A DNA stretch of 64,000 nucleotides. Source: Ignavibacteria bacterium (lineage in GTDB: Bacteria; Bacteroidota; Ignavibacteria; DATCTW01). The notes beneath the pieces were generated by a model. It was given only the letters and a program-made list of their open reading frames with translations, had not been told where the DNA came from and ran no database searches. This document shows, one piece after another, positions 6,541 through 62,345 of the stretch; within the stretch, counting starts at the first letter, position 1, and each line of letters begins with the position of its first letter. The DNA is taken from assembly GCA_036567745.1 (NCBI GenBank), contig DATCTW010000041.1, forward strand, positions 124,260 through 188,259, given 5' to 3'. The translations under genes and the position numbers were made by a program.

Positions 6541-9027
6541 CTATTTTGTTAAAACCATTTTTATGGAAGTGATTTTTGAATCCGTGTACAATTTTGCAAA
6601 ATAGATTCCTGAAGGATAATTAGAAGCATCCCAGTTTATAATATGAATACCCTGAGGTAAATAATCTTTTATTAGTACTGTTACTTCTCTTCCAAGTAAA
6701 TCGTATATTATTAGTTTCACATTACTGGATTTTGGTAAGTTGAATTTTAATGTCGTTGATGGATTAAATGGATTCGGGTAATTTTGTGCCAGATAAACCT
6801 CGTCTGGTAGCACGTAATTTGTATTTTGTACTGAAGTAAGAGGTTTATCAATTTCAGCTAACGATAGCTCATCGAGATAAATTGAACCTTCAGGCTTACC
6901 TTTTGAAGGGTCATAAGTTAGTTGATAACTGTCAAATCTTAAATATGGTCCTACAACGGGTCCAGGATTAAGCCATGAGCCCATTTCATTATAATTTGTA
7001 AATTTCCATTCTATTAGTTTCCATCCGTACCAATCAATAGTAACCCAATTGCTTACTCTATGTTTTGTTAATGTAGAGCTATCATCAACGCAGAATCTAA
7101 TTTGATTTTTACTGCTATCACCAAATACTAAAGATTGTAAAACAAGTGATGTGTCTATCATTTTATTATAAGCTGTCCCTTTTGAAAGATAAACACGAAT
7201 TAAATTTTGAGTTCCATCTTTCACAAATGAATAATCTAATTTTGCAGAATATTTATCCTGTGAAAATGGATAGTATATATTACTATCTAATGATAATTTA
7301 GTCTTTTCCGGGTAAACCCCAATAGTGCTACCACTCATTGTTGGTTGCCACCAATTATCTATACCCTGTGAGAAATCCTCAAGTGTTGTTACCGATTTAT
7401 ATTTTCTGTTGTTTGTGTTAACATAAAAATAATAAATAGATTTCATTGTGTTTTGGAAAATATCTTTTGCGGTATTATATATCAGAAGCACATAAACAGA
7501 GCTAGTATCCATTTGATTCTTCATCTTAACACAAACGTTGGTTTTATTATCAAGGTTATAAAACATCATATCTATTGGTTGGTCTATAGAATTCTTCCTT
7601 AATGCAATTGAAGATCTTAGTGAAGTTGTATCCATTAGTTTGTTAAAAGTAAATGTAATTGTACCCAATGTACTAAAATCTTTTAATGTTGAGTTTTTGG
7701 CAGGGTATGAGGATAGAACAAATGGTCTCTCATCATCAGATATCAAAGTTTTAAATGTAAGTATAAATGGATCTCCTGATACTCCATCCCCATTTCCATC
7801 AATAGAAAAACCTGCAATATCTTTTGCTGTTGTATCAATAAGAATAGTATAAGTAGTCTTTGAGTTTAACGGGGCAAGTGGTGTAAAACGTAAACTCATA
7901 TTAGAGTTTGACCAGCTGAAAGAACCCTCAACATTTGGTGTAATTTTAAATGCTTGTCTTACAGATGCGGTATCCATTGGTTTTGTAAATGTAAAATCGA
8001 AATATGAAGTAACCGAAACAGTAGTATCACCAGTTTTAAAGTTTGATGTAGCAACCGGAGGAATAAAGTTAATTAAAGTTTTATCTATGAATTTGATTTC
8101 ACCTTTATTTATTGTTACAAAGGCTGAATCAGGTAAATAATTTGGAGCTTCATATATTATTTTATAGTTACCAGCAACTAATTTATCAAACATGTAAAAA
8201 CCATTGTTATACCTATCACCTGTATAAGTAGAGTCAATTGGTAATATTTTTACATTCAAATAATTTATTGGATTATTCGAAGTCATATCTTTAATAATGC
8301 CAGCTATTATGCATAATGTATCGGGCGGAACACCAAAATATTCCATTATACCATTTCGAATGGCATAAGCTTCCATTTTTCTATAATGATTATTCATTAA
8401 TCTTCTTGTTTCAGGAAAATAATCGTGAAATGAACCTTCTGAAAGCTCACCTGGCATTACAAGACCTTTTAGTACACCTAGATTATAACCATCTTGTGGG
8501 CCACCGTAGAAAGTATAATCAAGATAAGTTGTTGAACCAGATGTGCGTAGATTTCTTACAAAATGTTTACCTAAAATATTGCTCATAGTTACAGCTTCAG
8601 GGAAAGCTGCTTTTCTCGTTGGAATATCCTCTTTTACCAACATCATTGTTGAATTAATACTATTATTTGGGGATTTAGAAGAAGCATTACTATGAATAGA
8701 GTGAAACCATGTTACATTGTTTGCATTAGCTAATTGCCACCTCGCTGTTAAAGATGGTTCTTCATCGTTTGGGTAGTAATTAGTATATCTTGTAAGAATA
8801 ACCCAGGCTCCAAGCTCTTTTAACATTGGTTCAAGTAACAGGGCTTTTTGGAAATTACTTTCTGATTCCCAAAAATCTGTACCAGGATCTGGAACTACGT
8901 GTCTATCGTTTGCAGGGTTATTACCTCCGTGTCCCGGATCAATACAAAATTTTAAACCAGAGAGATCCGTTCTCTGAGCAAGAAGTGTTATTGTAAAAAT
9001 TATATATAGAAAAAATATCTTTTTCAT
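6541..9027 (-). CDS. N-acetylmuramoyl-L-alanine amidase domain protein with Ig-like repeats and T9SS C-terminal sorting domain
   Basis: 828 aa with a signal peptide. The N-terminal Amidase_3-type motif is FCIDPGHGGNNPAND. The central region has SbsA/Big-like repeats (FTFTKPMDTASV, FTFNKLMDTTSL). The C-terminus NYPNPFNPSTTLKFNLPKSSNVKLIIYDLLGREV...IYFAKL is a classic T9SS (Por secretion tail) sorting domain. Confidence 0.8.
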   Translation of the reverse strand: MKKIFFLYIIFTITLLAQRTDLSGLKFCIDPGHGGNNPANDRHVVPDPGTDFWESESNFQKALLLEPMLKELGAWVILTRYTNYYPNDEEPSLTARWQLANANNVTWFHSIHSNASSKSPNNSINSTMMLVKEDIPTRKAAFPEAVTMSNILGKHFVRNLRTSGSTTYLDYTFYGGPQDGYNLGVLKGLVMPGELSEGSFHDYFPETRRLMNNHYRKMEAYAIRNGIMEYFGVPPDTLCIIAGIIKDMTSNNPINYLNVKILPIDSTYTGDRYNNGFYMFDKLVAGNYKIIYEAPNYLPDSAFVTINKGEIKFIDKTLINFIPPVATSNFKTGDTTVSVTSYFDFTFTKPMDTASVRQAFKITPNVEGSFSWSNSNMSLRFTPLAPLNSKTTYTILIDTTAKDIAGFSIDGNGDGVSGDPFILTFKTLISDDERPFVLSSYPAKNSTLKDFSTLGTITFTFNKLMDTTSLRSSIALRKNSIDQPIDMMFYNLDNKTNVCVKMKNQMDTSSVYVLLIYNTAKDIFQNTMKSIYYFYVNTNNRKYKSVTTLEDFSQGIDNWWQPTMSGSTIGVYPEKTKLSLDSNIYYPFSQDKYSAKLDYSFVKDGTQNLIRVYLSKGTAYNKMIDTSLVLQSLVFGDSSKNQIRFCVDDSSTLTKHRVSNWVTIDWYGWKLIEWKFTNYNEMGSWLNPGPVVGPYLRFDSYQLTYDPSKGKPEGSIYLDELSLAEIDKPLTSVQNTNYVLPDEVYLAQNYPNPFNPSTTLKFNLPKSSNVKLIIYDLLGREVTVLIKDYLPQGIHIINWDASNYPSGIYFAKLYTDSKITSIKMVLTK

Positions 9028-15122: not shown

Positions 15123-15196
15123 TGCGCCCGAAGGGATTCGAACCCCTAACCCTCAGTTCCGTAGACTGATGCTCTATCCAGTTGAGCTACGGGCGC
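15123..15196 (-). tRNA. tRNA-Arg (anticodon ACG)
   Basis: The reverse complement reads GCGCCCG TA GCTC AACTGGATA GAGC A TCAGT CTACGGA ACTGA GGGTT AGGGG TTCGAAT CCCTT CGGGCGC A. This is a complete cloverleaf with a 7-bp acceptor stem, anticodon loop CU-ACG-GA and a GTTCGAAT T-loop. The 3' CCA is not encoded. Confidence 0.9.
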
Positions 15197-47478: not shown

Positions 47479-50400
47479 GTGATGAGGGTATTAATAAAAG
47501 TATTATCCTTATTCTTACTATGTATTTCTTTTTTATTTTCTCAAAATGTTACGAACGATATTCAAAAATTGAGAAATGGATACTTACCCGAAAATAATGG
47601 TGATTATCAGAACAAGCTAAACACAATTGCTAAGGTTCAAAATAACAGAATAACCTGGAAAACAGGGACTGGTACATACCTTGATAGTTATATATGTTAT
47701 GGAGATGCCGCTGATCCAATCAAGTTCACAATATTAATTGATCGTGATGTAAAAGATTTAAAAAATATTAAACTTACTTTGAGTGTTTGGGATGTAGATG
47801 AAGCTCAAGGCGAAGTGGATGTTGTATCTATAAATGGACATGCTGTTGGTATTCTGCACGGTGCAAATGATTCCTGGAGTGTTAACAACTATACATTAAC
47901 CCCAAGTATGTTAGTAGGGGGCACTCCACAAAACCCGGGTGTTAATGAGATTGTAGTTGATTTAACTGTGAGCGGATGGTGTGTAACAGTTGATTGGGGA
48001 GCAATATCAGCCGATGGCGATGAATTTAATGTTGTATCTCATACTCCATTAAATAAACAAACAGGAGTAGATTTCGAGAAACCTGATATTAAGGCTGTTT
48101 TTAATTTGGAACCTGATTCAAAGACAATTAACTCCAATACTTTTGTCGTTTCTTATTGGGATAAGAATAATATGTCTGTGCCAATTTCAGGTTCTTATTC
48201 AGTTGATTCAAAAACTAATACCGTTACTTTTACTCCTTCTTCTAAATTGTTGGATGGTGTAAAGTATAAAGTTGAGATTAAAGGTGGTACTAATGGCGTT
48301 AAAAGCACTTCTGGTGCTACTATGAAAAAGGCTAAGGTTTTCTATTTTACAACTGTTCCTGAAATTACTGTTGAAAAAGTTGTACCTGTTCAAACTGCTG
48401 AAGGCGCAAATATGATTGCTTTCAAAAATGGTGTTGTAAGAGTTTATGCTTATATAGATGTAAAGCAAAATGTTGCCTTAAATGGCCAGGTTGATAAAAT
48501 TGATAATGTTGATGTTAAACTTGAACAACCTGGATATGTAATTGGTACAAAAAAAGTAACAATAAAGCGTAAAGATAAGTTTACTAAACGTGAGTTAACG
48601 CAAGGGACTTTTACCATTAACTTTTTCGATTGGTTCCCACCTGCAGGGGGTAGTTCATTAACAGCAACTGTTGGAGTTACTTCGTCTTCTAATACTTATA
48701 GAGAATATAAAGTAACAAACACTTACACGACATTGTCAAAGTTTAAGGATCTTAAATATGTTGTTCAACCCGTACTGGTTGGTTCTTGGAAAACATCACC
48801 ACCTGCTTCTTTCCCAAATTTAAGCTTCTTTAATGGTTCTGATGTTTTTACTTATCAAATATTCCCTGTTTCAAGTGTATCGCATAGTACTTTACCTGCT
48901 TTGCCTATAAGTCAGCCAGCGTATAGCCCGATGGATCAGCAAACTTATGTGTTTTGGGAATTACATAATTCAAGAATAAGGAATTCATCAACTTCTGATT
49001 TTATTGCAGGTTATACCCCAAGCGGATGGCTTGGTGCCATAGGTTACTCTTCATTTCTTTTTGGTGATGTAATTGCTATTGATGAGGTATTCTGGGATGT
49101 AATACCAACACACGAGTTTGCTCATAATTCAAATTATCTTGGTACAGGTCATACAGATGGGCCTATTGGCTCACTTCAAACATGGACTATCGAAGGCTTT
49201 AAAATATATCCCGGTGGCAGTAGTGGAGAACAATATTCAAAAAAATATGGTGTATTCCCAGCTGGTGTACCTTTAAGCTTTATGAATACTGATCCACCAC
49301 CAAATCATTTAGCATGGATTACAAATGAAGACTATAATACCTTATTAAATAGATTACCAAAGATTGGTAACGGTAAAAACTTAGAAAAAACTATGCTGGC
49401 AGAAGTAATGATATTAGGTGGTTATCTCAGTTCTTCTGATAATGTGATTTTAGAACCTATACAAAGACAAAATTACACTGTTGTTAACTTTTCAAATTCT
49501 GGAAGCTACTCTATTGAACAACTTAATTCTTCTAATAGTGTGCTAGCCACTAACAATTTTAACCCTTCACCTGAGTTTACTGGTAAAGATGGCTTGAAAT
49601 ATCGTTACTTTAGTGAGGTAATACCTTACAATGCACAAGCTACAAAAATTAGAATCAAAAAAGGATCAACAGTTTTAAAGGAAATTGTTAAATCAAATAA
49701 TGCACCTGTGGTAAGCATTACTTCACCAACAACAAATGCTATATGGTCTGGTAGTAGAACAATAACATGGACGGCTTCGGATGCTGATAAAGATACACTT
49801 TATTATGATATAAAATATAGCAGTGATGGCGGAACCAATTGGATACTACTCGCCAGAAATTATCAGGGTAATTCTCTCAATATTAATACTAATACTTTAA
49901 CAAATAGCAACAACGCTGTAATTAGTGTAACTGCAACCGATGGTTTTAATTGTACAACTTCTACAGCTAGTTTTTCTGTTGCTAATGGATTGACTGTTAT
50001 TAGTACACTACCTCAAAATAATGCTACAAATGTATCTACTAAAACAGCTATTACTTTCTGGTTATCTTCTAAAATTAAATCTTCTGATGTTACATCTTCA
50101 ATTTTTACCTTAACACAAAACATGACAACAATTAATGGAACTTTAAAGTATAACAATATTGATAACTCAATTACCTTTACTCCTTCAGCTGATTTAACCC
50201 CCGGTTTAAATTACGTTGCCAGATTAAAGGCTGGTTTAAAAGATTCTCTTAATAACCAACTTGCTAATGATTATGTGATTAGTTTCTATGTTCAAAATGA
50301 TTCTAGTTTGTATGTAGATTCACATTCACCACAGGCATTTGAACAATCTGTACCTGTAAATAGTTCAATTACTGTTTACTTCTCTAATTCAGTGAATTCA

Positions 50401-51654
50401 TCTACAATTAATACAACTACATTTTCTGTCAAAGAAAACGCAACTGGTGCAACTGTTCCAGGTACAGTTACCTATAATTCAAACACAAAGTCAGCAGTAT
50501 TTACACCAACAAGTTCACTAAAAGAATCTACTGAATACAAGGTTACTTTAAGCTCTCAAATAAAATCTTCCTTAAATAAACCTCTTGATAGTAACTATGA
50601 ATTTTTGTTTACAACAGGCTCTGGGACTATTTCAAACGTTCAATTATTAGGTAGTTATTCAGATATGGGTATTGATGATAATTCTAATGGTAAATATGAT
50701 TGGCTTGCCATTGATGTTGATGTAAATGTGAAAAATGCTGGCACATATTCAATCAACGGAAGGCTTGCTGATAAGAATAACAATGAGATTTTATGGGCTG
50801 CAACAAATAATCAGAGCTTAACTGCTGGTGCGAACAAAATTAGATTGAAATTTGATGGTAAAATTATAAATGCCTATTCAACTGATGGACCTTATAAGCT
50901 TACTGATTTACAAATTTATAGCACTCAAAATACAGAAGAATCAGACTGGATTTCTGAAGCTTATACAACAAAATCTTACAAAGCCTCTGATTTCGAAACA
51001 AGTAATATACCAGTAGCAATTAACTTTACTCCTTCTGATGGTTCTACAGGAGTGCCTACAAATGTCTCAATTACAGTCACATTTACTCGTAATATGAATG
51101 CATCGAAAATCGATACTAACTCTTTCTACATTAGAACAGCTACCGGTGCTAAAGTGCCAGCTACAGTAACATATAATTCTGCTACAAGGGTTGCTACCCT
51201 AACACCAAAAACACCTTTACAACCAAATACCTCTTATACTGTTACTATTTCAAGTAATATTACAGATGAGCAAGGCACAAAATTGCTTAAGCAGTATAAC
51301 TGGACTTTTATGACTGGGGCAGGTGTTTCCGATGAAACAGGTGCTATCACTAACTTAGTTACCTATCCAAACCCATTTCCTCATTCATCTTTACCAGATG
51401 GAGGTACAAAATTTGCTTTCAATCTATCTGATAATGGTACTAAGCTTAGAATTGTGATTTATACAGTATCAGGTGAATTGGTAAAGGAAATTGAAACCTC
51501 ACAGGTAAGAAAAGGATATAACGAGATTTATTGGAATGGTTATAATAAAGAAAATAAACCGGTCTCCAGTGGAACATACATCTATATTATCTATTTTACA
51601 GATAGTTCAAATAAAGAAAATAAAAAGATTGGAAAACTATCTGTTTTAAGGTAA
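47479..51654 (+). CDS. very large secreted protein with multiple SbsA/Big_5-type Ig-like domains, an HExxH segment and a T9SS C-terminal sorting domain
   Basis: 1391 aa. RBS AAGGAGG sits at 47470-47476, so ATG 47482 is the likely start (GTG 47479 in the track). It has a signal peptide and at least six repeats of the pattern 'P.N.ATNV....I...FS..I..S..T...F.L...' (e.g. TVISTLPQNNATNVSTKTAITFWLSS, NFTPSDGSTGVPTNVSITVTFTRNMNAS). There is a THEFAHN (HExxH) motif. The C-terminus YPNPFPHSS...KLRIVIYTVSGELVKEI...GTYIYIIYF is a T9SS-type sorting domain. Confidence 0.8.
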   Translation: MMRVLIKVLSLFLLCISFLFSQNVTNDIQKLRNGYLPENNGDYQNKLNTIAKVQNNRITWKTGTGTYLDSYICYGDAADPIKFTILIDRDVKDLKNIKLTLSVWDVDEAQGEVDVVSINGHAVGILHGANDSWSVNNYTLTPSMLVGGTPQNPGVNEIVVDLTVSGWCVTVDWGAISADGDEFNVVSHTPLNKQTGVDFEKPDIKAVFNLEPDSKTINSNTFVVSYWDKNNMSVPISGSYSVDSKTNTVTFTPSSKLLDGVKYKVEIKGGTNGVKSTSGATMKKAKVFYFTTVPEITVEKVVPVQTAEGANMIAFKNGVVRVYAYIDVKQNVALNGQVDKIDNVDVKLEQPGYVIGTKKVTIKRKDKFTKRELTQGTFTINFFDWFPPAGGSSLTATVGVTSSSNTYREYKVTNTYTTLSKFKDLKYVVQPVLVGSWKTSPPASFPNLSFFNGSDVFTYQIFPVSSVSHSTLPALPISQPAYSPMDQQTYVFWELHNSRIRNSSTSDFIAGYTPSGWLGAIGYSSFLFGDVIAIDEVFWDVIPTHEFAHNSNYLGTGHTDGPIGSLQTWTIEGFKIYPGGSSGEQYSKKYGVFPAGVPLSFMNTDPPPNHLAWITNEDYNTLLNRLPKIGNGKNLEKTMLAEVMILGGYLSSSDNVILEPIQRQNYTVVNFSNSGSYSIEQLNSSNSVLATNNFNPSPEFTGKDGLKYRYFSEVIPYNAQATKIRIKKGSTVLKEIVKSNNAPVVSITSPTTNAIWSGSRTITWTASDADKDTLYYDIKYSSDGGTNWILLARNYQGNSLNINTNTLTNSNNAVISVTATDGFNCTTSTASFSVANGLTVISTLPQNNATNVSTKTAITFWLSSKIKSSDVTSSIFTLTQNMTTINGTLKYNNIDNSITFTPSADLTPGLNYVARLKAGLKDSLNNQLANDYVISFYVQNDSSLYVDSHSPQAFEQSVPVNSSITVYFSNSVNSSTINTTTFSVKENATGATVPGTVTYNSNTKSAVFTPTSSLKESTEYKVTLSSQIKSSLNKPLDSNYEFLFTTGSGTISNVQLLGSYSDMGIDDNSNGKYDWLAIDVDVNVKNAGTYSINGRLADKNNNEILWAATNNQSLTAGANKIRLKFDGKIINAYSTDGPYKLTDLQIYSTQNTEESDWISEAYTTKSYKASDFETSNIPVAINFTPSDGSTGVPTNVSITVTFTRNMNASKIDTNSFYIRTATGAKVPATVTYNSATRVATLTPKTPLQPNTSYTVTISSNITDEQGTKLLKQYNWTFMTGAGVSDETGAITNLVTYPNPFPHSSLPDGGTKFAFNLSDNGTKLRIVIYTVSGELVKEIETSQVRKGYNEIYWNGYNKENKPVSSGTYIYIIYFTDSSNKENKKIGKLSVLR

Positions 51655-55238: not shown

Positions 55239-57998
55239 TCAATCTAAAGTATAACCTAGTGAGAAATAGAAAAATACCGGACCAAATATAAATGGATTAT
55301 TTGGGAGGTTCCTACTAGAAATAAATGAATTGCCTAATGAAAATATTGAGGGCCCAACTGGTGTATCTAATGCAAAACTAAGCCCGAGACCATGTCTTAG
55401 ATTTTCTAGTTTTATAGCCTCTGTTTTTTCCCATACAGAACCAACATCATAACGCAAACTTATATAAGTATCAAAAAATAGTTTAAATGGAAGAAGCCAC
55501 CTATATTCAAGGCTTGTTACAAATATTTGTCTTCCTCTGAATTCATTGTCTCTTAAACCAAAGAAAGAATTTTGTCCCCCTAGTTTATATTGTTCTGTAT
55601 ATGGCAAAGTATTATCACCATAACCGAAAATTATTTTAGGATGAAATGTATTTGTGTTTCTTGCGGTAACAAAAAATTCATAACTTATAAATGTTTTTGT
55701 AAAAGAAATTCCTGTACCTAATTTAGCAGTAGAAATTTCATGATAGACATTAAGATACATTCCCTTTTTAGGAAATGGATATAAGTCCTGTGAATCAAAA
55801 ATTAAACCTCCTTTTATACTTGATATATTATGTTTGCCGACAGGAAATCCATCACCATTGTGAGCAAATATTTTTTGATGTTCATATTTGTACTCACCAT
55901 ATAGAAAACCTAACTTTTTATACATGCCTCCAAAAGTTATTGATGGACCATATTTTATTTCTCTAAACTCACCGGATTCTTCTCTTTTCCATCGATTAAG
56001 TTTATTTGTTGGAACGGTTCTGTAGCTATATTGATCTTCAAATTGGTATTTAAATTTTGTTTTTAGGAAAAAGGGGGTATTGAATATTTTATTTGTTTTA
56101 AAATCAATTGAAGAACTCGTATTTCTAAAACCACCTTGAAAGTTAATGCCATACTCTGCACCCCCACTAAATAAATTTTCATTTCTAAAATCAAGGTATA
56201 TCTGTGAGTGTTTTTCATTATCAACTCTAATTCCCAATCTCATAATCTCTGGAGGTTTTTCTGTTACTTTTATGTTGACATCTGGTTGTTCCATTGTATA
56301 GTTTACATCGATAATAACATTTTCAAAAAGATCTGTTGATACAAGATTGTTTAACCCTCTTGTTGCTAAATTAATGTTAAATAGATCACCTTTTTGTAAA
56401 GGGAATTCCCTTAAAATCACATAATCTTTTGTATTGTTATTACCTATCACATTTACTTTATTTATTCTACCCTCGGTTATATAAATCGACAGATTCTGTT
56501 TGATACTATCGAAATCAACTTTATATATTTTCGCAAGAGATAGACCAATGTTCCTATATTTTTTTATAATGCTATCTGTAACTCTTGACCATAATTTATG
56601 ATTAAATGGTTTATCAATAAAAATCGAAAAAAGTGAATCGATATAATATCTTGATAAAAGAGAATCACCTTCTACTGATATTGATTTTATATAAGGGTAT
56701 GGTTCAAGGTTATAGTTTAATGTATATGCTTTTTCGTTTTTTGTTAATACACAATATACATCTTTATAATAACCAGTAGATTTAATTTCTTTTGTGGTAT
56801 TCAAAATATCAATTTCAGTTATTATTCTATTTTGCTGTCTGTTTATTACTTCGTTCTCTATGTCAAGAGGAATGTGTGAACCAGAAAAACTTACAGAAGT
56901 TATAAAATATTCTTTATTATTGTTGTATAGATTGCTTAAAGAATCTCTCTTTTTATTTATTTCAGAAATTTTTTTTATGGCGTATTTTTCCCCTACGCTA
57001 ATTATCGAATCCGCCTCATTAAAACTGGTTGATGAGTATTTATGTAAATCTGGTGAAATCACAATGTCAGAGCTTTTTAGTTCTCTATTATCAAATTCTG
57101 CTTGCATAACTGAAAGCATTTGGTCAAGCACTTCCCAGGGGGCATTTATTTCTTCTTTTTTTCTTAAACCGCTTGTTGTATTCACTGAAATCACCAGATC
57201 ATATCCTGCATTGATAGGGAAGTGTGCAGGAATATTTGCTAATATTCCTCCATCAATTAATTTTAATGAATCTCTTATTATTGGGGGATTAAGTAAAGGC
57301 CAGGTAAAGCTAGCTCTTATTGCTTCACTTAAATTACCTGAATCTAATGCTATGCTTTTGCCATGCGTTAAATCTGTAGTAACAGGATAAAACTTTATGG
57401 GTAATTCGTTAAACTTTTCTGTATGATGTATGCCCTGTAGTACTAAGCCATTAATTAAATTAGTAATTTCGTGACCACTCGATAAACCAGATGGAATTAC
57501 AGGTTTTAAATTTTGGAATCTTAAAGTAAAAAAGCTCTTTGAAAATGAAAGCTTTTGATCTTGATATAAGTATTCTCTTTTTACATCTTTTGTAATAGAA
57601 AAAAAGGAATTTACATCAACTGATTTGAGTAATGTTTTTAATTCCTCAGTTGAGTATCCGATAGAATATAAACCTCCGATTATTGCTCCAATGCTGGTTC
57701 CATAAATAGCATGAATTGGAATCTTATGTTCATTAAATACTTCTAACACTCCAATATGAGCTAAACCTCTTGCACCACCACCACTTAGTACTAAAGCAAT
57801 TTTTGGTTCTTTGACTCTCAGTTCAGGTATTTTGGGAAAATTTTCTGTATGTATAATTGTATCATATTTGGGTCTTATGATTATTTGTTCTTGATTTTGA
57901 GCATTGGATAAATCATTGATAAATAAATTTAATAATAAAACAAAAGTAATAATTATACTCGATAATTTTGTTTTAATTATTTTATTTGCAGAGGTCAT
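55239..57998 (-). CDS. patatin-like phospholipase fused to POTRA + Omp85/BamA-type beta-barrel (PlpD-like, type Vd secretion architecture)
   Basis: 919 aa. The patatin oxyanion hole is ALVLSGGGARGLAHIGVL, the nucleophile is GTSIGAIIGG and the Asp motif is LIDGGILANIP. A POTRA-like segment follows (ITEGRINKVNVIGNNNTKDYVILREF), then a long C-terminal barrel ending FSLGYTLD. Confidence 0.85.
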   Translation of the reverse strand: MTSANKIIKTKLSSIIITFVLLLNLFINDLSNAQNQEQIIIRPKYDTIIHTENFPKIPELRVKEPKIALVLSGGGARGLAHIGVLEVFNEHKIPIHAIYGTSIGAIIGGLYSIGYSTEELKTLLKSVDVNSFFSITKDVKREYLYQDQKLSFSKSFFTLRFQNLKPVIPSGLSSGHEITNLINGLVLQGIHHTEKFNELPIKFYPVTTDLTHGKSIALDSGNLSEAIRASFTWPLLNPPIIRDSLKLIDGGILANIPAHFPINAGYDLVISVNTTSGLRKKEEINAPWEVLDQMLSVMQAEFDNRELKSSDIVISPDLHKYSSTSFNEADSIISVGEKYAIKKISEINKKRDSLSNLYNNNKEYFITSVSFSGSHIPLDIENEVINRQQNRIITEIDILNTTKEIKSTGYYKDVYCVLTKNEKAYTLNYNLEPYPYIKSISVEGDSLLSRYYIDSLFSIFIDKPFNHKLWSRVTDSIIKKYRNIGLSLAKIYKVDFDSIKQNLSIYITEGRINKVNVIGNNNTKDYVILREFPLQKGDLFNINLATRGLNNLVSTDLFENVIIDVNYTMEQPDVNIKVTEKPPEIMRLGIRVDNEKHSQIYLDFRNENLFSGGAEYGINFQGGFRNTSSSIDFKTNKIFNTPFFLKTKFKYQFEDQYSYRTVPTNKLNRWKREESGEFREIKYGPSITFGGMYKKLGFLYGEYKYEHQKIFAHNGDGFPVGKHNISSIKGGLIFDSQDLYPFPKKGMYLNVYHEISTAKLGTGISFTKTFISYEFFVTARNTNTFHPKIIFGYGDNTLPYTEQYKLGGQNSFFGLRDNEFRGRQIFVTSLEYRWLLPFKLFFDTYISLRYDVGSVWEKTEAIKLENLRHGLGLSFALDTPVGPSIFSLGNSFISSRNLPNNPFIFGPVFFYFSLGYTLD

Positions 57999-58755
57999 TT
58001 ATTAGTTTTGCACTTTTAATGTTGTCAAATATTTTTTTTACAGAATTTATCAGGGAAAGGTCTATACTACATATCTCGTATTCTTTTGTAACCTTTGTAA
58101 ACTTGACTTCATTTCCAAAAGGATCAAATACATAAGATTTACCACAATGAATATCATTTTTTGAATTAACACCAATTACAAATATCTGATTTTCAATTGC
58201 TCTTGCTTTCAAGAGGGTTCTCCATATTTCTTCTCTTTCTTTGGGCCACCATGCCTGTACTATTAATAAATCCATGCCTTCTTTTGCCCTTTTTCTTGCA
58301 AGTTCAGGGAATCTTAGATCGAAGCAAATTATGTTACCAACTTTTATTTTATTACCGCGTAAATTAACTGTAAAATTTTTTGTGTATTTACCCGGCTTAA
58401 ATAATTTATGTTCATTTAATGGTTTGAATAAGTGAATTTTTTCGTATTCATTTATAATTTTACCATTATATAATGCTAATGAAACATTCTTTCTATCTTT
58501 ATGAGAGTGACCAATAGGGAAGGTGCCTGGGAATAATAAAATTTTGTTTTCTTTTGTAAAATTTAGAAGTGATTGTATAAATGGTTCATCCTTTGTTATA
58601 AAAAAATCGTTTTCTTCCTTAAAAACCGAATAACCTCCCAAAATCATTTCAGGCATTATAATGATATCTATATTTTTTAATTGTGCTTTAAGACTTTTAT
58701 TATTAATGGTGTTTAATGAATATGATAAACATATATTCAAGTTTTTATTTTTCAT
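57982..58755 (-). CDS. carbon-nitrogen hydrolase family protein (nitrilase/omega-amidase-like)
   Basis: Glu, Lys and Cys contexts are IIMPEM, YEKIHLF and VGNIICFDLRFPEL. I start at ATG 58755 (GGAGAAAAA immediately upstream). The ORF maximum is 58800. The 3' end overlaps the patatin gene start by 17 nt. Confidence 0.8.
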   Translation of the reverse strand: MKNKNLNICLSYSLNTINNKSLKAQLKNIDIIIMPEMILGGYSVFKEENDFFITKDEPFIQSLLNFTKENKILLFPGTFPIGHSHKDRKNVSLALYNGKIINEYEKIHLFKPLNEHKLFKPGKYTKNFTVNLRGNKIKVGNIICFDLRFPELARKRAKEGMDLLIVQAWWPKEREEIWRTLLKARAIENQIFVIGVNSKNDIHCGKSYVFDPFGNEVKFTKVTKEYEICSIDLSLINSVKKIFDNIKSAKLINDLCK

Positions 58756-58847
58756 TTTTTCTCCATAATAATTAAATAATAATATAATTAGTTGTTTCAT
58801 TATTTTTCAAGGTTATTATATAGTATGCTTTAAAAGATTATAGCAAT

Positions 58848-60914
58848 GTTGCTACATCTTCTCATATACCATTAAAGTAAACGAAGCGAGATGTTTCAAT
58901 TACCATAGGGGTAGAGCCCCTAAATGTTTGTAGAAAGACATGTAAAAACAAAACAAGCACCGTAGGTGCGACACGTATAGATATGTCAGGGCTACGCACC
59001 TTTTGAATTTTTAACGCATTAACGATTCGGTTACGTTAGAATCAGAGCCCCGATATGTTTGTAGAAATGTAATCGAAAACATAACAAGCACCGTAGATAC
59101 GACACGTATAGACATTTCGGTGTTACGCACCTTTTGAATTTTTAACGCATTAACAATTCTATTACGTTAGGGGCAGAGCCCCGATATGTTTGTAGGAAGA
59201 CATGTAAAAACATAACAAGCACCGTAGGTGCGACAAGCATAGACATGTCAGGGCTACGCCCCTAAAACAATTATCTGACCATAATTCTACAAACATATCG
59301 GTGCTACGCACCTTTTGTATTAACGACAAATAAATGTTTCCCTTACCATAGTGTCAGAGCCCCGTTATGTTTGTAGAAAGCACGAACAAAAACATAACAA
59401 GCATCGTAGATGCGACACGTGTAGACATTTCGGTGTTACGCTCCTTTTGTATTTATTACATATCAACGTTTTGTTTACATTAGGGGCAGAGCCCCGATAT
59501 GTTTGTAGGAAGACATGTAAAAACATAACAAGCACCGTAGGTGCGACATGTATAGACATGTCAGGGCTACGCCCCTAAAATATTTATCAAAATATAAATC
59601 TACAAACGTTTCTGTGCTACGCACCTTTTGTATTTACAACGCAGAAATTTTTTGATTACCATAGGGGCATAGCCCCGTAATGTTTGTAGAAAAACGAATA
59701 AAAAACATAACAAGCGCCGTAGGTGCGACACGTATATACATGTCAGGGCTACGCCCCTAAAACATTTATTTGCCAAAAATCTACAAACGTTTCGGTGCTA
59801 CGCACCTTTTTTAACATTATAAAAAATCATGAGAAACGATGTTTTGTAATTTAGGGGCAGAGCCCCGAAATGTTTGTAGAAATACGAACAAAAACATAAC
59901 AAGCACCGTTGGTGCGACATGTTAAAACATATCATGGCTACACATTTTTTGTATTTATTACGCATTGACGTTTCGATAGGGGCAGAGCCCCGATATGTTT
60001 GTAGAAAAACGAATAAAAAAACATAGCAAGCACCGTAGGTGCGACACGTATAGACATGTCAGGGCTACGCCCCTAAAACATTTATCTGACCATAATTCTA
60101 CAAACGTTTCGGTGCTACGCACCTTTTATATTTACGAAGCAAAATGTGTTGGTTACGATAGGGGCATCGCCCCGATATGTTTGTAGAAAAACAAATTAAA
60201 AAATATAATAAGCACCGTAGGTGCGACACGTAAAGATGTGTCAGGGCTACGCCCCTAAAACATTTATCAAATCATAAACCTACAGACATATCGGTGCTAC
60301 GCACCTTTTGAATTTATTACGCATTGACGTATTGATAGGGGCATCGCCCCGATATGTTTGTAGAAATGTAATCGAAAACATAACAAGCACCGTAGGTGCG
60401 ACATGTGTAGACATGTCAGGGCTACGCCCCTAAAACATTTATTTGCCAAAAATCTACAAACGTTTCTGTGCTACGCACCTTTTTTATTTATAACACAAAA
60501 ACGTTTTGCTTACGATAGGGACAGAGCCCCTAAATGTTTGTAGAAATACGAACAAAAACATAACAAGCACCGTAGGTGCGACACGATAAAAAATTATATT
60601 CGTTTCTGTTCTATGCACCTTTTTTATTAACGACAAATAAATGATATGCTTACCATAGGGGCAGAGCCCCGAAATGTTTGTAGAAAGACATGTAAAAACA
60701 AAACAAGCACCGTAGGTGCGACACGTATAGACATGTCAGGGCTACGCCCCTAAAACATTTATCAAATCATAAATCTACAAACGTTTCGGTGCTACGCACC
60801 TTTTGAATTTTTAACGCATTAAAGATTCGGTTACGTTAGGGGCAGAGCCCCGAAATGTTTGTAGAAAGCACGAACAAAAACATAACAAGCGCCGTAGGTG
60901 CGACACGTATAGAC
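58848..60914 (+). repeat. tandem array of 13 composite GC-rich hairpin units (125-190 nt each), family unassigned (REP/BIME-like or tandem small-RNA genes)
   Basis: The GGGGCAGAGCCCC hairpin recurs at 58908, 59039, 59170, 59351, 59483, 59664, 59854, 59979, 60161, 60338, 60518, 60658 and 60839. A degenerate remnant sits at 58848-58907 and the last unit is truncated near 60914. Each long unit contains GGGGC-AGA-GCCCC, GCACC-GTA-GGTGC, AGGGC-TAC-GCCCC and GGTGC-TAC-GCACC hairpins in a conserved order. Strand is given as + only because the terminator-like hairpin plus T-tract reads on that strand. Confidence 0.9.
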
Positions 60915-60989
60915 CTCAAAAAAAAATTAGAATTGAAACTAAAAATATACTTTAATATATTGTTATGAGTTAATCAAAAAAATTATATT

Positions 60990-62345
60990 ATGGCAAAACA
61001 AAAATTAATATACTTTTGCAAAAATTGTGGAAATGAATCGCCAAGATGGATTGGGAAATGCCCGGTTTGTGGTGAATGGAACCAATATATTGAAGAAAAG
61101 GTTATTGAAAATAAAAATAAAAATGTAAGAAAAGCTCATGAAAATGAAAATACACCTTTTTTACTCAACGAAATTGAAACTGATAGCGAGATAAGAATAA
61201 AAACACACATTGAAGAATTCGATAGAGTATTGGGTGGTGGTATAGTTACTGGTTCAGTAATTCTTTTAGCAGGTGATCCTGGTATTGGTAAATCTACTTT
61301 GATGCTACAGATTGCACAAAAGGATTTTAATAAATCTATTCTTTACATAACAGGTGAAGAATCTTTACAACAAATAAAATTAAGAGCATCAAGACTTGGG
61401 TTAAATTCAAATACAACCTATTTTTTGGCTGAAACAGAATTGGATGCTATCGATAAAGTAATCGAAAAAATAAAACCTGAAATAATAATTATCGATTCTA
61501 TACAAACGGTCTATCACTCTTCTTTCGATAATGCACCTGGCAGTATCACACAAATAAAAGAATGTACCTATAGATTAATGCAGGTTGCTAAAACTAAAAA
61601 TGTTTCTGTATTCATAGTTGGCCATATAACAAAAGATGGGCTTATTGCTGGACCAAAAATTCTGGAACATATAGTTGATACTGTATTGCAATTTGAAGGA
61701 GATAATAATTACTCCTATAGAATTTTAAGATCAGTTAAAAACAGATTTGGTTCAACAAATGAAATCGGTATTTTTGAAATGACATCTTCTGGTTTAACAG
61801 AAGTTAAAAATCCATCTGAAATATTTTTATCACAAAGACAAATAAATTCTTCCGGCTCTACAATAGTATCTACTATAGAAGGCTCTAGACCAATACTTAT
61901 TGAGGTTCAAGCATTGGTTACTCATACAAGCTATGGTATACCTCAAAGATCATCAACTGGTTTTGATCATAGAAGGCTTGCAATTTTATTAGCTGTAATT
62001 GAAAAACGATTAGGAATAAAACTCGGTCAATATGATGTTGTTACTAACATAGCTGGAGGTGTAAAGGTAACAGAGCCTGCTGTAGACTTAGGTATTATCT
62101 CCTCAGTAATTTCAAGTTATAAGGATGTTCCCATAAATTCAAAAATGGTCGTAATAGGTGAGGTTGGGTTATCTGGAGAAGTGAGAGCTGTTAACTTTAT
62201 GGAGAAAAGACTTCAGGAGACAAAAAAACTTGGTTTCTCGAAAGTAATTATTCCTAAAAATAACATAAAAGAATCAAAAAACATAAGTGATATCGAAATT
62301 ATACCTGTTAGTACAATAAATGAATGTCTTTCTCATTTAATTTGA
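60990..62345 (+). CDS. radA: DNA repair protein RadA/Sms
   Basis: 451 aa with the N-terminal zinc ribbon CKNCGNESPRWIGKCPVCGEWN, Walker A GDPGIGKST, the KNRFG motif and a C-terminal Lon-like domain. Confidence 0.95.
   Translation: MAKQKLIYFCKNCGNESPRWIGKCPVCGEWNQYIEEKVIENKNKNVRKAHENENTPFLLNEIETDSEIRIKTHIEEFDRVLGGGIVTGSVILLAGDPGIGKSTLMLQIAQKDFNKSILYITGEESLQQIKLRASRLGLNSNTTYFLAETELDAIDKVIEKIKPEIIIIDSIQTVYHSSFDNAPGSITQIKECTYRLMQVAKTKNVSVFIVGHITKDGLIAGPKILEHIVDTVLQFEGDNNYSYRILRSVKNRFGSTNEIGIFEMTSSGLTEVKNPSEIFLSQRQINSSGSTIVSTIEGSRPILIEVQALVTHTSYGIPQRSSTGFDHRRLAILLAVIEKRLGIKLGQYDVVTNIAGGVKVTEPAVDLGIISSVISSYKDVPINSKMVVIGEVGLSGEVRAVNFMEKRLQETKKLGFSKVIIPKNNIKESKNISDIEIIPVSTINECLSHLI

Follow-up and report, generated by a model that had tools for sequence, protein, structure and literature searches.

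The textbook case of a domesticated transposase that lives with its own short repeats is that of repetitive extragenic palindromes (REPs) and REP-associated tyrosine transposases (RAYTs), which to our knowledge have hardly been described outside Proteobacteria and some Cyanobacteria. REPs are short, G/C-rich hairpins with a GTAG tetranucleotide, and their inverted dimers (REPINs, REP doublets forming hairpins) can fold as one long hairpin (PMC2817692, PMC3733652, PMC8266576). In a REP, GT[AG]G lies 0–2 nucleotides (nt) 5′ of the foot of the stem (PMC6006769, PMC8266576), and in REP clusters the dimers are reiterated in tandem along with flanking DNA (Di Nocera 2013, PMC3733652). Here we describe a tandem array of hairpin repeats that shares these features in part, at positions 58900–60915 of a 64,000-nt stretch of contig DATCTW010000041.1 from an Ignavibacteria bacterium (the whole stretch is hereafter called the window). 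We consider it probable that this array arose by tandem amplification from a REPIN-like, gene-less derivative of a REPtron, that is, of a Y1 (single-tyrosine) transposase gene together with its cognate hairpin repeats.

The other closely related systems lie on the IS200 side of the Y1 HUH (histidine–hydrophobic residue–histidine) family. In IS200/IS605 elements such as IS608 and ISDra2, and in their hairpin-only, non-autonomous derivatives (palindrome-associated transposable elements, PATEs), small hairpins in single-stranded DNA (ssDNA) and nearby short sequences serve for recognition. A further group, subclass 1.2 of Quentin et al. (2018), is defined by the signature DH[IV]H, WQ and Y---Q--HH, a length of about 148 amino acids (aa) and occurrence in Bacteroidetes or Cyanobacteria; it has a mean of 1.7 copies per genome with 36% identity between copies, and is listed without REPs and without IS200-type ends (PMC6006769).

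A tandem array of four-hairpin units

The array lies between the divergent genes amidohydrolase and radA, in an intergenic region of 2.2 kb, and comprises 13 head-to-tail units on the + strand: seven long (177–190 nt, about 181 nt), five short (125–140 nt, about 131 nt) and one terminal half. These contain 45 hairpin–tail modules (7 × 4 + 5 × 3 + 2), in agreement with the 45–50 given by an earlier reading of the same letters (the original prediction). Each module consists of a G/C hairpin with a 5-bp stem and a 3-nt loop, a 3-nt linker and, in the lineage of the window, the tail ATGTTTGTAG. GTAG occurs twice: one copy spans the loop and the 3′ arm, and the other lies 9 nt 3′ of the stem, closing the 13-nt linker and tail (on the opposite strand, CTAC 9 nt 5′). 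The tetranucleotide therefore does not lie 5′ of the stem, as had been noted originally. Core motifs of 17 nt and 26 nt each occur 13 times, against 0.00 expected from shuffles, and within the 64 kb they are confined to the array.

In a long unit the modules follow one another in the order forward–forward–reverse–reverse. The 5′ part holds H1 (GGGGC-AGA-GCCCC), GAT and ATGTTTGTAG, followed by a spacer of about 23 nt; in the centre, H2 (GCACC-GTA-GGTGC) with GACACGTATAGAC is overlapped by the tail of the inverted H3 (AGGGC-TAC-GCCCC); and the 3′ part consists of a second spacer, CTACAAACRT, NNN, H4 (GGTGC-TAC-GCACC) and a linker of about 38 nt. Unit 3 (59162–59342, +), a long unit of 181 nt made up of a 143-nt four-hairpin element and the linker, shows the arrangement. 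Its outer H1 module (59170–59195, +; GGGGC-AGA-GCCCC GAT ATGTTTGTAG) has the hairpin at 59170–59182 and the tail GATATGTTTGTAG, ending at 59195, whereas the inner H2 module (59219–59244, +; GCACC-GTA-GGTGC GAC AAGCATAGAC), with its hairpin at 59219–59231, has a degenerate tail. On the opposite strand, the inner H3 module (59237–59262, −; GGGGC-GTA-GCCCT GAC ATGTCTATGC) has its hairpin at 59250–59262 and reads GGGGC-GTA-GCCCT GACATGTCTATGC as the reverse complement, and the outer H4 module (59287–59312, −; GGTGC-GTA-GCACC GAT ATGTTTGTAG) has its hairpin at 59300–59312 and reads GGTGC-GTA-GCACC GATATGTTTGTAG. The sequences and coordinates first reported for this unit were all correct, and the 15-nt inverted repeat between H1 and H4 (59181–59195 and 59287–59301) is exact. 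H2 and H3 have in common an 18-nt quasi-palindromic centre, which is the position of the Y1 gene in relatives (see below).

It had also been proposed that a long unit could fold as one long REPIN-like hairpin. As ssDNA, unit 3 does fold into a single long hairpin that bears H2 and H3 as local hairpins (ΔG −31.8 kcal/mol, z −5.4), a stability that none of 200 shuffles reached. In addition to the modules, the H1 tail ATGTTTGTAG and the sequence GTAAAAACAT before H2 form an extra imperfect inverted repeat (59186–59213, likewise in other units); a motif resembling it, GTAAAAAC, makes up the outermost inverted ends in a metagenome-assembled genome (MAG) of Saprospiraceae (L038, 3171–3345).

The four modules are paralogous

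A covariance model (R1) was built from 101 distinct hairpin-plus-tail modules from the window and other metagenome contigs, with a training set of H1/H4-type modules and two modules in which an H2-type hairpin precedes a complete canonical tail, and was run across the whole window with filters off. All H1 and H4 modules of the window scored 32–43 bits (in unit 3, 42.1 bits, E = 2.2e-10 for H1 and 42.8 bits, E = 1.3e-10 for H4). The H3 modules scored 21.2 bits (E = 2.7e-4); for the H2 modules the scores ran from 11 to 21 bits (E = 3.5e-4 to 0.2). The majority of these matches span the full length of the model; outside the array, the best match in the other 62 kb of the window reached only 8.9 bits (E = 1.2). 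Intermediate forms occur elsewhere, namely H2-type hairpins with a perfect GACATGTTTGTAG tail (L149 and L122), an H3 with the tail ATGTTTATA (L125) and, in the Saprospiraceae MAG, four identical hairpins, GGGGC-AGC-GCCCC. Given the R1 matches and these intermediates in other lineages, the original reading of the unit as four paralogous modules is sound.

The hairpin itself is supported by pairing in the stem. A 5-bp stem (at most one mismatch) stands directly upstream of 83% of the 244 distinct tail sites, as opposed to 6% for shuffled flanks. The alignment of the 101 modules had been restricted beforehand to those with a single stem mismatch at most; in it, 95.2% of cells are paired, both-side changes are found at 5 of 5 pairs (150 cells), and the covariation score is 0.733, against 0.181 for shuffles and no more than 0.22 when the register is slid. 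With about 300 tail sites counted across 47 loci, the module is, like a REP, a G/C-rich palindromic hairpin present in many copies.

A Y1 transposase gene occupies the centre of the unit in relatives

As the original prediction had stated, no RAYT gene lies in the window, and tblastn found no Y1 gene there. It had also proposed a search for a Y1/HUH gene elsewhere, and such a gene was located by running array-bracketed open reading frames (ORFs) from other contigs against Pfam. The ORF at 2028–2489 (−) of contig L117 encodes a protein of 153 aa that matches Y1_Tnp (PF01797) with 100 bits (E = 1.2e-28). An H2 module is found 10 nt from the stop codon, and an H3 and then an H4 module about 100 nt upstream of the start codon; the gene thus occupies the centre, between H2 and H3, of a unit whose four hairpin types are those of the window. 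L132 represents the same locus, and among the contigs that contain the repeat pattern the Y1 gene is present on two contigs of this one locus only.

Homologues of the protein are numerous (1,769 at E ≤ 1e-10, many 60–68% identical), with source names that include Flavobacterium, Peijinzhouia, Luteibaculaceae, Spirosomataceae and Candidatus Kryptoniota. We examined the flanks of the gene, with R1 or by direct reading, in nine further lineages: L166, L169 (Flavobacterium branchiophilum), L173 (Ca. Kryptoniota), L175 (Spirosomataceae), L177 (Peijinzhouia), L178 (F. gilvum), L179, L185 and L186. In all 10 lineages, L117 included, the order is outer–inner–gene–inner–outer, with all tails pointing toward the gene. 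The upstream outer and inner modules lie on the + strand, within about 170 nt in most of the nine (in Peijinzhouia the closest is about 200 nt from the start). Downstream, the inner module begins 2–40 nt past the stop codon and the outer one about 25–30 nt beyond, on the − strand. These flanking modules match R1 with 20–40 bits; the downstream outer module of L179 is degenerate. In relatives, outside the window, the Y1/HUH gene is thus flanked by inverted cognate repeats in 10 of 10 cases, as a RAYT gene is by REPs.

The correspondence extends to the junction itself: the centre of the window unit reads GCCCT-GAC-ATGTCTATAC joined to GTGTC-GCACC, and in L117 the same boundaries read GCCCT-GAC-ACGTATATTAAT...gene...TTTCC joined to GTGTC-GCACC. 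Because the flanks match across the gene-bearing lineages, the unit in the window is the same shell without the gene. Gene-less copies are also found near the Y1 gene itself, in L166 (2387–2542, between two hsdS genes) and in L177.

Several Y1 genes stand within or beside defence loci (L166, 1–8460; L173, 2068–5462; L175, 3860–7218): one between an integrase/hsdS pair and the hsdR of a type I restriction–modification system, one with an MmeI-type enzyme as neighbour, and one between an EcoRI-like methylase and Fic/GmrSD genes. This placement could reflect chance insertion into variable islands or a functional link. One homologue, P0010 (L179–L184), is found on 24 contigs from many sequencing runs, and in the six places shown (24 contigs read) it lies each time between an ABC-F ATPase gene and GatD/GatE-like genes; it looks like a fixed, non-hopping gene.

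The enzyme lies on the IS200 side of the Y1 family

The protein scores 80.8 bits against the NCBIfam model transpos_IS200 (NF033573; cutoff 55) and 30.3 bits against REP_Tyr_transpos (cutoff 80). Its closest solved structures are the TnpA proteins of ISDra2 (2XM3, 3e-8) and IS608 (2A6M), and the structure of Escherichia coli TnpA-REP gave no match at E ≤ 1. Among 12 aligned homologues (152–155 aa; mean column identity 79%), residues D54, H55, H57, W95, Q96, Y115, Q119, H122 and H123 are invariant. The tyrosine motif is Y-I-E-N-Q-x-x-H-H, that is, Y-x3-Q, as opposed to the YxxxNP of class 2, so that the enzyme has the features of an IS200-type TnpA and lacks those of the RAYT clade. To judge from these scores and motifs, the Y1 enzyme is an IS200-like TnpA-Y1 of subclass 1.2, not a classical RAYT.

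All three motifs of the subclass 1.2 signature, a length of about 150 aa and an occurrence in Bacteroidetes are shared. The description of that subclass (PMC6006769) differs from the genes examined here, which have double-hairpin flanks in 10 of 10 lineages and are accompanied by gene-less families. In the literature that we searched, we found no later paper on subclass 1.2, PMC6006769 being the only one found to describe it, and within those bounds a tie between subclass 1.2 and such repeats appears to be undescribed. Two other repeat types were compared with the modules and rejected: the REPs of the Bacteroidetes RAYT subclass 2.6 are unlike them (Table S1 of Quentin et al., PMC6006769), and the CGTC-type REPs of Di Nocera are ruled out by their stems of 8–9 bp (PMC3733652).

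Membership of the same Pfam/NCBIfam Y1 HUH family as the TnpA of IS608 and ISDra2, whose relatives likewise include hairpin-only, non-autonomous derivatives, raises an alternative: the relatives could carry an ordinary IS200/IS605 insertion sequence that moves by IS608-like, strand-specific peel-and-paste, with the window array as its PATE-like or MITE-like (miniature inverted-repeat transposable element) remnants and nothing REP-like about either. The family score and the best structural matches fit this, as do the settings of the element, which is about 0.7 kb long and in different taxa has unrelated genes on either side, even within operon-like runs, and the resemblance of a hairpin with a conserved tetranucleotide about 9 nt later to the right end of IS608 (PMC8266576). 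The ends, however, do not. IS200/IS605 elements have different hairpins at their left and right ends, both on the same strand and without terminal inverted repeats, whereas the ends here are inverted, doubled and symmetric, with two hairpins each, and no tnpB is present. Subclass 1.2 is itself low in copy number and without IS200-type ends (PMC6006769), the gene-less copies are far more numerous than the gene and occur as REP-like dimers and clusters, and P0010 keeps to one conserved locus in the six places shown, out of 24 contigs read. We consider an ordinary insertion sequence unlikely.

The repeat family beyond the window

We scanned metagenome contigs for the pattern ATGTTTGTAG-N20-32-CCGTAGGTGCGAC, which has 23 specified bases and an estimated chance expectation of less than one match, and recovered 46 contigs with a GC content of 0.25–0.64. 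The GC-rich contigs L128, L143 and L161 carry single near-perfect palindromes of 135–215 nt with the architecture seen in the window, and L038 also has a single inverted palindrome. AT-rich contigs carry arrays, often at several intergenic regions of one contig (L117, L137, L139 and L140), and arrays are also present in L124 and L158; in L131 the bare 25-nt module is repeated in four head-to-tail copies. The family therefore forms inverted dimers and mosaic clusters, as do REPINs and bacterial interspersed mosaic elements (BIMEs). At protein-anchored loci the tail consensus is NTRTTTRTAG, of which the terminal (G/A)TAG is most constant. Neighbours of the repeats are ordinary chromosomal genes, for example those for SecA, GH92 and Rnf, and an all-against-all clustering of nearby ORFs revealed no recurrent neighbour family. 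In L147 (765–2368), two arrays enclose a cassette of an outer-membrane beta-barrel, an ImmA/IrrE-type peptidase and a helix–turn–helix (HTH) protein.

A scan of genome contigs with GCCCCNNNATGTTTGTAG, too short a pattern, gave 115 matches, mostly chance singles, from which two loci that carry the element in the Saprospiraceae MAG were recovered. These copies (L032 and L038) have the inverted ends GTAAAAAC...GTTTTTAC and A-rich flanks without a clear target duplication, and the MAG provides a firm Bacteroidota anchor for the family. Overall, the family is spread through bacteria of the Fibrobacteres–Chlorobi–Bacteroidetes (FCB) group at 25–64% GC, both as REPIN-like single palindromes and as arrays. 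Searches in other directions were negative: BLAST of two units against plasmids and phages gave no match, a spurious ORF derived from the array had none in the protein database, and a full-text literature search for the motif strings returned unrelated primer matches only.

This distribution bears on the simplest alternative, a passive satellite in which local tandem duplication multiplied incidental hairpins and no enzyme took part in origin or spread. It would account for the single locus in the window and for the observation that all polymorphisms seen are products of recombination or slippage. A passive satellite would not be expected at many unrelated loci across phyla and from 25% to 64% GC, with compensatory changes in the stem and a conserved tail, nor with its modules on both sides of a conserved Y1 gene in every one of the 10 lineages looked at, and we give it hardly any credence.

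A second alternative holds that the units are tandem small-RNA genes or a transcription-control region, each with a promoter and a terminator, and that the link to Y1 is secondary. Terminator-like hairpin-plus-T patterns number 27, against 2.5 expected from shuffles, and unit 3 also folds stably as RNA (z −5.9). The −7 promoter consensus of Bacteroidetes is TAnnTTTG, which GATATGTTTG fits; the linkers show TTTG-N20-TTTG spacing; and about 11 of 17 arrays point at the start of the next gene. The orientation to neighbouring genes is nonetheless mixed, with about 6 of the 17 arrays convergent, and sigma-70-type promoters are not enriched (9 against 9.2). Rfam 15, at gathering and E-value thresholds, returned nothing relevant for the array or for GC-rich members, and in the rest of the window it matched a tRNA alone. 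Conservation of ten tail positions, GTAG included, goes beyond the needs of a promoter; the near-perfect palindrome is present on both strands with stems of only 5 bp; and the number of units ranges from about 3 to 13 among close relatives. The promoter reading of GATATGTTTG, which leaves the ten-position conservation and the mixed orientation of the arrays unexplained, was discarded, and RNA genes or control regions strike us as very improbable, although the arrays may have side effects on transcription, for example weak bidirectional termination. Other repeat classes were set aside on anatomy alone: CRISPR for the absence of variable spacers, integron attC sites for that of a GTTRRRY core, and also type III toxin–antitoxin repeats, ribozyme arrays and iterons.

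Arrays change in length, probably by recombination between modules

The locus of the window is also found in a relative (L141), where the flanks are 94–96% identical and the array has about 3 units as opposed to 13. In L127, at about 97% identity, the second unit differs, and the orthologous loci L125 and L148 are distinguished by one 55-nt tandem copy and one 52-nt deletion between H3 and H4 that is bounded by the direct repeat AAACATGCCGCC. The short units of the window are likewise deletion products between H3 and H4 modules rather than units of another design. Their junctions vary: that of unit 1 falls within the loop, those of units 2 and 4 within the tail, which points to several separate deletions. 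In L118 (1–1588), the amidohydrolase-side flank (91% identical to 58674–58823) is followed by one unit and then by a downstream gene other than radA, an arrangement that suggests rearrangement at the repeat. The only other public contig with the exact RadA protein (Logan assembly; L165, 1–109, against 60882–60990 of the window) starts inside the last array unit, and many Y1 homologues are on contigs of less than 2 kb; the repeats evidently break short-read assemblies.

Along the window, all on the + strand, units 1 and 2 (58900–59161) are short, 131 nt each, and consist of H1, H2 and one H3/H4 hybrid hairpin. Unit 3 is followed by the short unit 4 (59343–59474, 132 nt), the long units 5 and 6 (59475–59845, 181 and 190 nt), the short, degenerate unit 7 (59846–59970, 125 nt), the long units 8, 9 and 10 (59971–60509; 182, 177 and 180 nt), the short, degenerate unit 11 (60510–60649, 140 nt) and the long unit 12 (60650–60830, 181 nt). 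Unit 13 (60831–60915) is the terminal half, with H1, spacer and H2 only, and arrays at other loci end in the same way. The flanking genes, outside the element, encode an amidohydrolase of the nitrilase superfamily (57982–58800, −) and RadA (60990–62345, +).

A probable gene-less derivative of a Y1 element

Our preferred reading, that the array amplifies a gene-less derivative of a REPtron, is built on what is directly observed: a module with a covarying stem, the architecture of gene plus modules in 10 lineages, gene-less copies at multiple loci, and changes in copy number with deletions between H3 and H4. In the full element, a gene for a Y1/HUH transposase of 153 aa is enclosed on either side by two modules, outer and inner, which stand in inverted orientation with all tails inward. 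In the window unit the gene is absent and the two inner tails are fused as the 18-nt quasi-palindrome. By analogy with the TnpA proteins of IS608 and ISDra2 and with TnpA-REP, the mechanisms of which are summarized in PMC8266576, a Y1 dimer would bind the hairpins extruded on ssDNA, as small ssDNA hairpins and nearby short sequences are recognized in IS200/IS605 elements. It may use the adjacent conserved tail for specific contacts and for the choice of a cleavage site, near GTAG, and could disperse gene-less copies in trans. Unequal recombination or replication slippage between paralogous modules would then lengthen and shorten the arrays, the linker of about 38 nt being carried along.

Like a REPtron, the system combines tandem clusters of dimers, a Y1/HUH gene bracketed by its own inverted repeats, and gene-less copies that outnumber the gene. 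It departs from REPs in the position of GTAG, which closes a 10-nt tail and stands 9 nt 3′ of the stem rather than 0–2 nt 5′ of the foot, and also in its 5-bp stems, two modules per end, a class 1 IS200-like enzyme, FCB hosts and arrays of up to 2 kb. The comparison with REP/BIME elements and RAYTs in the original prediction has thus held in one part, palindromic units tied to a Y1/HUH gene in relatives, and not in another, the clade of the enzyme and the position of GTAG. The evidence supports a system that is REP/RAYT-like in substance and that falls outside the classical group on those two counts.

Several observations weigh against this reading. Within the window the family is present at a single locus, without a Y1 gene, and 47 of the 49 repeat-bearing loci (46 metagenome, 3 viral) lack one as well. 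The scan demanded ATGTTTGTAG and CCGTAGGTGCGAC exactly, and conservation among the 46 loci is in part there by construction. No filled or empty insertion site was found among the loci compared, and transposition is only something that we infer, every polymorphism seen being explained by recombination. Inward tails, a 3′ GTAG and inverted, doubled ends fit neither the ends of IS608 nor canonical REPs, and the cleavage model is one drawn by analogy. Finally, the defence-gene neighbours and the fixed locus of P0010 mean that the Y1 enzyme may have a host function other than repeat mobility.

A broader proposal, on which we are evenly divided, is that the modules are the unrecognized cognate DNA of the 'orphan' subclass 1.2. 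The repeats and enzyme would then form a REPIN/RAYT-like replicator of FCB-group bacteria, with an independent origin on the IS200 side, a distinct recognition geometry and a tendency to fill AT-rich intergenic regions with kilobase arrays.

Host context and implications

The host is AT-rich, with about 29% GC. Type IX secretion system (T9SS)/FlgD-Ig-like C-terminal sorting domains are found on large secreted proteins in the window (6541–9027, − and 47479–51654, +) and in L139 (791–8020), and these domains, together with SusC-like proteins, place the host in the FCB group. The window contains no rRNA gene and one tRNA gene (15123–15196, −). A 919-aa ORF at 55239–57998 (−) combines an N-terminal patatin-like phospholipase with a BamA/Omp85 beta-barrel (residues ~500–905).

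If the tie between the modules and subclass 1.2 is correct, a defined substrate, open to synthesis and direct testing, would be at hand for an enzyme clade described without any DNA structure of its own, and the lifestyle of a transposase with its own hairpin repeats would have evolved on two or more occasions in the Y1 family. The 3′ tail and the doubled ends would offer a natural experiment on how HUH enzymes read the DNA next to a hairpin, and the family would explain the kilobase repeat arrays that break metagenome assemblies of FCB-group bacteria.

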